Both the position numbers and the translations under genes were made by a program. Under the pieces are notes generated by a model. The model was not told the origin of the DNA. It made no database searches and saw nothing but the letters and a program-made list of their open reading frames with translations. From Escherichia phage LF82-1, in sequence record PV648359: a DNA stretch of 64,000 nt, one strand, 5' to 3'. Below, in pieces: positions 28,166 to 28,741 of the stretch (its first letter is position 1; every line of letters begins with the position of its first letter).

Positions 28166-28379
28166 AAGGAATTTCCTCATCGGTGACAAGGTCATATTCG
28201 ACCAATTGGATAGGCTCGTTAATACCATATCCACGTACAGTGATATCGGTTGTCGGATATTTTCCAGTAATATCACCCATTCTAAATGCTTCAGTGAATG
28301 ATTGCTCACCTGAGCAACTAAACCAGGCGGCAAAACATTTTAAAACATCTTCAGACCCTTCTATAATCAATTTAGCCAT
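28155..28379 (-). CDS. hypothetical acidic protein
   Basis: 74-aa ORF with ATG start. Confidence 0.45.
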   Translation of the reverse strand: MAKLIIEGSEDVLKCFAAWFSCSGEQSFTEAFRMGDITGKYPTTDITVRGYGINEPIQLVEYDLVTDEEIPYVD

Positions 28380-28741
28380 TATAGACTCTCAGTAAAGGTA
28401 CGAGCGATAACGTCGCGCTGCTGTTCCGGAGTCAGAGAGTTAAAGCGAACTGCATAACCGGATACACGAATGGTCAGCTGAGGATATTTTTCCGGATGCT
28501 TAACTGCATCTTCCAGAGTTTCACGACGCAGAACGTTAACGTTCAGGTGTTGACCACCTTCAATTTTAACTTTAGGTTGATGTTCAATTTCAATTTCACG
28601 GGCATGTAAACCGTAGAAAATTTCCGGGTCTACAATAGCGTCTTCTTTAAAAGTCTTAGAGACGATAATCCGGGCTTGAGTACCATCTTCAAAATAAATA
28701 GTGCCTTTATGTACACCTTCAAGAATTTGATATGCTTTCAT
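28379..28741 (-). CDS. GrcA-like glycyl-radical protein (PFL C-terminal domain, RVSGY motif)
   Basis: 120 aa; C-terminal …[60 protein letters not shown] matches E. coli GrcA as recalled; 3' half of the gene is markedly GC-richer than its surroundings. Confidence 0.85.

Follow-up and report, generated by a model that had tools for sequence, protein, structure and literature searches.

The 64,000-nucleotide (nt) stretch of Escherichia phage LF82-1 analysed here (record PV648359; the window) carries on its minus strand, at 28379..28741, a gene for a 120-residue phage autonomous glycyl radical cofactor, which is a Mosigvirus-type ortholog of T4 vs.6 (protein Y06I). The gene is a mosaic, in which a phage-type 5' half is joined to a 3' half whose DNA is nearly that of grcA (yfiD) of Escherichia coli. 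We consider it very probable that the product is a spare part for pyruvate formate-lyase (PFL) and that the mosaic arose by recurrent conversion with host grcA. Moreover, the 3' half of vs.6 probably evolves in concert with the host chromosome, being overwritten repeatedly by the grcA allele of the resident host during lytic infections. The radical domain would then always equal that of the current host species (E. coli for Tequatrovirus and Mosigvirus, different Klebsiella species for Jiaodavirus), with the N-terminal half and the junction with vs.5 kept.

The host-like tract and its donor

The open reading frame (ORF) starts with ATG at 28741..28739 and ends with TAA at 28381..28379, and the ORF list places it exactly where the first-pass annotation of this DNA had put the gene. 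Its assignment to vs.6 follows from synteny, a full-length match to phrog_1209 (residues 1-120 against profile positions 1-121; 210 bits, E = 1.3e-62), a glycyl-radical domain (Pfam PF01228, Gly_radical; 67.3 bits, cutoff 22.2) and a match to the structure of GrcA (PDB 6OWR; E = 1.9e-42). T4 vs.6 lies at NC_000866 63557..63919 and is labelled 'autonomous glycyl radical cofactor GrcA' in RefSeq (NP_049730); the T4 and window proteins have the same residue at 113 of 120 positions (~94%, counted by eye from the two translations). The gene is 100% identical in DNA to that of Escherichia phage LF82-2, and 1,523 phage records match it, with 925 of these covering 80% or more of its length. In the 5' half, identity is 96% to Mosigvirus JS09 and 89% to T4, which marks the window phage as Mosigvirus-like (RB69 group).

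Residues E61-L120 are identical to residues 68-127 of E. coli GrcA at all 60 positions, in agreement with the earlier recognition of a GrcA-type glycyl-radical protein. The identical block includes the RVSGY glycyl-radical motif (R92-Y96; 28454..28468, minus strand), which was located from the translation, the PF01228 match and the alignments to 6OWR and to the PflB structure 1H16. The radical glycine, G95 (codon 28459..28457), is the equivalent of G102 in GrcA and G734 in PflB. At the DNA level, codon alignment of the last 60 codons with E. coli grcA showed 175/180 nt to be the same, and all five differences are synonymous. Identity to grcA is 97.3% for the DNA under the last 60 residues and 98.8% over a 171-nt core.

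A nucleotide search of the kind that the first-pass annotation had proposed recovered grcA in every complete E. coli genome: a 183-nt segment matched in all 5,426 of them at 95.1-97.3% identity, at one site per genome and always in grcA, and the best genome still showed five mismatches over the 183 nt. In a megablast search against these genomes, the tract (~28371..28563) was the sole match within window 1..41000; positions 1-16000 gave no match, positions 16001-41000 gave the grcA tract alone, and nrdD and the other genes with host counterparts in 1..41000 gave none.

We place the putative host-derived conversion tract at gene nt 181-351 (codons 61-117; 28391..28561, minus strand), where 169/171 nt equal E. 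coli grcA and where the gene codes for the structured glycyl-radical domain. Identity to grcA breaks down directly upstream of codon 61 (window 28561), within ~10 nt of the boundary at 28570 that had been drawn earlier. The 3' limit is set by a phage-specific end, GAG AGT CTA followed by TAA (28379..28390, minus strand; GAA AGC CTG TAA in E. coli), so that the last three codons account for three of the five differences. These differences track the phage clade, with CTA in Mosigvirus and TTG in Tequatrovirus. The other two differences, both synonymous, lie within the tract at window positions 28481 and 28469. An E. coli allele that would account for these two private differences was sought and rejected, as none occurs among the 5,426 genomes.

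Among 80 reference host species, E. coli was the best match across T4-type phages (0.972-0.989), followed by a cryptic Escherichia species (0.96-0.98) and then Citrobacter (0.90). In a neighbour-joining tree of the 159-nt core (300 bootstraps), the tracts of Tequatrovirus and Mosigvirus were nested in the Escherichia host clade in 283/300 replicates, and a phage-only clade was recovered in 0/300. RB16-like phages, RB43, leE and KP15-like phages, which have no host-like tract, formed a separate phage clade outside the Enterobacteriaceae. Within host grcA genes the N- and C-terminal halves are equally diverged, with no break. Because the phage tracts are nested in the host clade and host grcA lacks such a break, the transfer, as judged from sequence comparison, is from host to phage, with E. 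coli grcA as the donor. As an alternative donor pflB was rejected, since its protein differs at 12/64 positions.

The two halves also differ in guanine-plus-cytosine (GC) content, as the first-pass annotation had noticed: GC is 0.483 in the 3' half against 0.344 in the 5' half, and GC at third codon positions is 0.383 against 0.217. The window mean is 0.374 (standard deviation 0.038, 180-nt windows), and a GC of 0.483 is attained by only 0.22% of such windows across the 64 kb. However, the decisive evidence for a host origin is nucleotide identity and not the GC contrast. The earlier claim that the 3' half is of recent host origin is upheld by an identity of 97-99%, against ~83% expected from protein conservation.

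Tracts in phages of E. coli and Klebsiella

Pairwise comparisons of E. coli phages revealed that the tract is far more uniform than the 5' half of the gene. Between the window phage and T4, 20/180 sites differ in the 5' half but only 3/171 within the tract (Fisher p = 3.5e-4); between phiE142 (Mosigvirus) and L006 (Tequatrovirus), the counts are 19/180 and 0/171, respectively (p = 2.6e-6). Tequatrovirus and Mosigvirus are thus 11% apart in the 5' half, yet have in common a tract with 99-100% identity to E. coli. Flanking genes are 60-87% identical to those of T4, against 97-100% for the tract. The tract of phiE142 equals E. coli grcA at 100%, and 5,156 genomes match it at 99% or more. Nucleotides 200-384 of E. 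coli grcA match 638 phage records at no less than 95% identity, and the match never extends farther upstream.

Part of this pattern would also be expected from a single E. coli-to-phage conversion that then spread among Tequatrovirus and Mosigvirus by phage-phage recombination in co-infections. T-even phages recombine readily, all E. coli phages share one 5' tract boundary, and the in-tract differences from E. coli among these phages are mostly private and star-like, all of which fits one founding event. A single event nevertheless appears rather unlikely. Among the E. coli phages, some match a living E. coli allele at 100%; at gene nt 219, phage ZN18 has the variant of the MG1655 type; on its 3' side the tract ends at different points in different lineages, at ~nt 351 of the gene in T4 and Mosigvirus and at ~339 in Jiaodavirus; and near-identical Jiaodavirus phages carry tracts that match different host alleles.

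This last observation concerns phages of Klebsiella, in which the pattern is reversed. The 5' halves of Jiaodavirus differ from one another at 0-6/180 sites and the core tracts at 5-17/159; Nispero and KpV477, for example, differ at 0/180 sites in the 5' half and at 8/159 in the core tract (p = 0.002). Jiaodavirus proteins have the Klebsiella-type residues LLDAVEH where E. coli has LEDAVKH. Candidate donors were collected by a degenerate-pattern scan of metagenome contigs, which yielded 67 host-type grcA genes representing 34 alleles; the K. aerogenes grcA from a PLSDB record was left out as its sequence is frameshifted. The commonest host allele (L173 type, 21 contigs) is that of K. pneumoniae, with 99.4-99.7% identity over 1.8 kb to K. 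pneumoniae records. It matches the core tracts of L028 and FRZ284 at 98.7% and 96.9%, respectively, whereas the Nispero core tract is 98.7% identical to a second allele, L182, and that of Roth21 is 96.2% identical to a third, L204, with which it has ten diagnostic sites in common. The L204 allele comes from a Klebsiella-like species and is just 83-85% identical to K. pneumoniae and K. aerogenes. In the tree, the six Jiaodavirus tracts were monophyletic in 0/300 replicates and paired with different host alleles, L028 with K. pneumoniae in 215/300 and Roth21 with L204 in 214/300.

Taken together, the patterns in E. coli phages and in Jiaodavirus indicate several apparently independent host-to-phage conversions. 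The patch thus follows the host and not the phage tree, and conversion appears to recur: the E. coli allele is found in phages of two genera, and closely related Klebsiella phages carry differing Klebsiella alleles. Other T-even genera and T5-like phages have no host-like tract. Host-tracking conversion is thus well supported, though on short tracts and a modest sample.

One further tract concerns a phage isolated on Yersinia pseudotuberculosis. Locus L007, which we take as Yersinia phage vB_YepM_ZN18 and in which the nt 219 variant mentioned above was found, has an E. coli-type tract that is 98.8% identical to E. coli; Yersinia and E. coli grcA are ~84% identical. The tract in this phage may record a history in E. 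coli and not the isolation host.

Alternative origins, client enzyme and proposed mechanism

The first-pass annotation had read the gene as a chimera, in which a captured host radical domain was fused to an unrelated, AT-rich phage sequence and could serve as a spare part for the phage anaerobic ribonucleotide reductase, NrdD. The sharp break in both identity and GC at codon 61 would suit such a fusion. The phage-type 5' half (codons 1-60; 28562..28741, minus strand) has no DNA match to E. coli, and it differs from T4 by 11% in DNA because the window phage is Mosigvirus-like. However, it is not unrelated to GrcA, as had been claimed, but to all appearance a diverged homolog of the GrcA N-terminal region. 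When profiles of the N-terminal halves only (nine T-even phages against thirteen host species) were compared by hhalign, phage residues 19-60 aligned with GrcA 25-67 (probability 92.8%, E = 4.1e-7, 33% identity). The motifs ARxIVxK, ED..V and RE(I/V)x(I/V)E are common to phage and host N-terminal halves, and the alignment to the TIGR04365 model starts at residue 18 and so enters the phage N-terminal half. Residues 1-18 of the phage protein gave no alignment to GrcA. In GrcA itself, efficient activation and the binding of cleaved PFL depend on residues 1-60.

The 5' half is, moreover, conserved among T-even lineages. Full-length homologs with the phage-type N-terminal half are known across many T-even genera as well as from T5-like and jumbo phages, and vs.6 was present in 6/6 T4-like genomes of an early comparison (PMC1524935). 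This full-length phage family is also found with 3' halves that are not host-like. Since the N-terminal half is homologous to GrcA and the full-length family exists without host-like 3' halves, the mosaic is best read as partial gene conversion of an old phage grcA homolog and not as fusion of a captured domain. The chimera of the first-pass annotation therefore survives as a mosaic gene with a recent host 3' half, but the recipient was a pre-existing phage grcA homolog and not foreign sequence. YfiD is disordered over residues 1-60, and its structured radical domain spans 61-127 (PMC8683613). With its first residue equivalent to YfiD 68, the tract begins near this border, and the patch thus corresponds to the folded domain.

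Several GrcA homologs outside the T-even phages were also recorded. The T5-like loci L044-L071 and L082 (104-121 kb) and the loci L027, L029 and L030 (345-357 kb) encode GrcA homologs with T-even-like N-termini (MKAYQ... or MTIKA...), whose 3' halves reach 63-76% identity at most to any host grcA. The phage-type grcA gene has evidently moved between phage families, to judge by these N-termini. Among the IMG/VR 'viral' contigs L031 and L072-L081, several carry a host-type full-length grcA (with a Yersinia-like N-terminus) or full-length pflB; these contigs are probably host regions or prophage flanks and not phage genes.

The fusion scenario further included NrdD as the client. NrdD is encoded in the window (605 residues; 10683..12500, minus strand; NF006732, 905 bits) and is likewise an oxygen-sensitive glycyl radical enzyme, with the C-terminal radical motif RRTCGYLG; its C-terminal sequence includes RRTCGYLGNPNERGF, and the protein ends in NTIRRTCGYLGNPNERGFNLGKNKEIMHRVKHQ. 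In addition, a role in nucleotide metabolism was guessed from a Pfam match in the early comparative paper (PMC1524935). We rejected NrdD as the client, and with it this part of the first-pass annotation: BLASTP of the vs.6 protein against the window NrdD gave E = 2.4 with no alignment to the C-terminal RRTCGYLG region, and no NrdD chain was among the PDB matches of the vs.6 protein at E <= 1e-3. Against residues 696-759 of PflB, 52/64 residues of the radical domain are the same (81%), the RVSGY loop included. Because the domain matches PflB and not the phage NrdD, PFL is the likely client of the window protein.

The function of a spare part as such, which had also been proposed earlier, fits the biochemistry of the T4 ortholog. 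According to the account of Wagner et al. 2001 given in PMC8683613, Y06I, like YfiD, receives a radical from the PFL-activating enzyme, forms a complex with oxygen-cleaved PFL and makes that enzyme active again. No PFL spare parts besides YfiD and Y06I have been validated biochemically (PMC8683613; PMC13450708). With its N-terminal half homologous to GrcA and its radical domain close to PflB, a captured and fused domain serving NrdD is very improbable.

It could also be argued that there was no recent exchange at all, and that the near-identity comes from extreme purifying selection on the protein and a codon preference common to phage and host. The C-terminal 60 residues are indeed nearly invariant across hosts and phages, and the GC of the C-terminal half (~0.48) is similar in all T-even lineages. 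However, RB16-like phages encode the same 60 residues with just 82.8% nucleotide identity to E. coli grcA and a synonymous divergence (dS) of ~2 (~1.8-2 for RB16/RB43-type phages), and in Cronobacter phage leE, whose residues are again the same, identity over the core tract does not exceed 85.5% for any host. Between E. coli and Salmonella grcA, the dS of the 60-residue block is ~1. These controls show that synonymous sites can change freely. The window tract has a dS of 0.12 against E. coli grcA (~0.05 over the core), and host-like tracts range over 0.05-0.15; phage tracts show just 0-3 differences per 171 nt from E. coli. Where phage and E. coli have the amino acid in common, they also use the same codon in 55/60 cases in the C-terminal half, against 8/14 in the N-terminal half (p = 0.004). 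With the RB16-like phages as a control, nucleotide identity is thus higher than protein similarity predicts, and conservation without exchange is a highly improbable explanation. Finally, a short host-identical segment in phage DNA resembles a mis-assembly, but a chimeric assembly or host-read contamination is next to impossible given the same structure in the 638 independent phage records, the T4 reference genome included, the unbroken reading frame and the phage-specific last three codons.

We return to recurrent conversion of a PFL spare-part gene and propose the following mechanism. By analogy with the T4 ortholog and with YfiD/GrcA, the PFL-activating enzyme of the host, PflA, would place the radical on glycine G95 in the C-terminal domain. 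The radical domain would dock into host PFL whose own C-terminal radical domain was cut by oxygen at Gly734, and PFL activity would be regained. The infected cell may in this way keep making acetyl-CoA, formate and ATP in the micro-oxic gut after host gene expression has been shut off. The phage may bring its own spare part since host grcA would no longer be inducible after the shut-off, at a time when PFL-dependent energy metabolism is presumably needed.

As for the gene itself, codons 1-60 represent an old, phage-lineage-specific and strongly diverged GrcA N-terminal region, and gene nt 181-351 have very recently given way to the E. coli grcA allele, whereas the final three codons and the vs.5 overlap have stayed phage-type. 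Patching may proceed via homologous recombination (gene conversion) between vs.6 and host DNA fragments during infection, and the patch edges fall at the limits of phage-host DNA homology and at the transition from the disordered to the structured part of GrcA. The final three codons overlap the region where vs.5 translation starts (GAG before TAATG), which probably protects them from replacement; the GAG may act as a ribosome-binding site for vs.5.

Several points weigh against parts of this account. The activity of the window protein is extrapolated from the 94%-identical T4 protein, and the benefit to phage physiology is one that we infer. The protein scores 158.6 bits against TIGR04365, the NCBIfam equivalog model for GrcA, over residues 18-120, which is under the curated cutoff of 170; this shortfall arises because the N-terminal half has diverged. 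The GC of the C-terminal half is 0.48-0.49 in phage lineages without a recent host patch too, and we dropped GC content as proof of capture for this reason. For the Klebsiella phages, the phage-host pairings have 58-72% bootstrap support on tracts of 159-171 nt, and the donor alleles L182 and L204 come from unlabelled metagenome contigs, the L173 type alone being tied to K. pneumoniae. Within the E. coli phages alone, repeated conversion by the host and one conversion followed by phage-phage spread are not separable.

Known systems and gene neighbourhood

The gene and its function were already known (2001; the T4 Vs.6/Y06I family). The T4 gene lies in the same vs.7-vs.6-vs.5 locus between denV and regB, also encodes 120 residues and shows the same mosaic with an E. 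coli-like tract. The two proteins differ at seven residues, six in the N-terminal half plus R73 here against H73 in T4. E. coli GrcA (YfiD; P68066, 6OWR, TIGR04365, IPR011140) is likewise a stand-alone protein of ~14 kDa with the same C-terminal domain (60/60) and with residues 25-67 homologous to phage residues 19-60. Unlike GrcA, the phage protein is seven residues shorter, is ~33% identical in the N-terminal half with the first 18 residues unalignable, and is encoded in the early gene cluster of a lytic phage. The C-terminal radical domain of PflB (693-759; 1H16) is the part that a spare part replaces and resembles the phage domain (52/64 to 696-759), but the phage protein stands alone and lacks the catalytic barrel.

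The psbA and psbD genes of T4-like cyanophages offer a precedent: these host-homologous metabolic genes carry intragenic host-like patches, as seen in sequence and GC (Sullivan et al. 2006, PMC1484495). In both systems, an auxiliary metabolic gene of a phage is patched with host sequence by intragenic recombination. They differ in gene, hosts and environment; the position of the vs.6 patch is fixed at a protein-domain border, and, unlike that of psbA, the patch can match a living host allele at up to 100%. An earlier description of the vs.6 mosaic or of host-tracking conversion was not found in the literature searched, although such an absence is weak evidence. The evolutionary behaviour may be new: a strictly lytic enterobacterial phage would carry a patch of 160-170 nt, with up to 100% identity to the host chromosome, that changes with the host species.

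If this holds, recombination of T-even phages with host DNA is frequent enough to be visible as a population-wide signature, and the tract would be a short molecular record and a possible sequence marker of the recent host species of a phage. It would also provide a natural case of host-templated upkeep of a viral auxiliary gene in enterobacterial phages, and, with marked grcA alleles, a convenient system in which the conversion of phage genes by host DNA could be measured. There may be practical consequences as well. The gene grcA has been proposed as a typing marker for Straboviridae by quantitative PCR (PMC12845203); because 171-183 nt of phage grcA are 97-100% identical to E. coli, primers in the 3' half would amplify host DNA. 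Host-contamination filters may likewise flag the vs.6 tract in phage assemblies.

The minus-strand gene order in the window is denV, two internal-protein genes, vs.8-like, vs.7, vs.6, vs.5, vs.4 (Acb2), vs.3, regB and vs.1, and the order from denV to vs.1 around vs.6 is the same in T4, OE5505 and LF82-2. On the upstream side lie denV (30340..30765), the vs.8-like gene (29053..29592) and, directly upstream of vs.6, vs.7 (28748..29056); vs.5 (28155..28379) follows directly downstream, all on the minus strand. A GAGG sequence at 28746..28749 (minus strand), read 4 nt before the ATG of vs.6, overlaps the TGA stop of vs.7 and may serve as the Shine-Dalgarno element. The vs.6 stop shares bases with the vs.5 ATG (TAATG). 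Such tight gene packing is typical for the early gene clusters of T-even phages. A promoter and terminator scan near the gene returned sites no more frequent than in shuffled sequence, and none specific to vs.6.

Two genes downstream of vs.6, the 88-residue ORF at 27899..28165 (minus strand; Pfam PF24729, Acb2_Tad1_hairpin, E = 1.5e-17) is T4 vs.4/Acb2, a cyclic-nucleotide sponge that counters the cyclic-oligonucleotide-based antiphage signalling system (anti-CBASS). The mechanical ORF list gives it as a longer, TTG-started ORF (27899..28333) that overlaps vs.5. Elsewhere in the window, tRNA-Arg(tct) and tRNA-Met(cat) adjoin at 39903..40057 (minus strand), in a cluster much smaller than that of T4.

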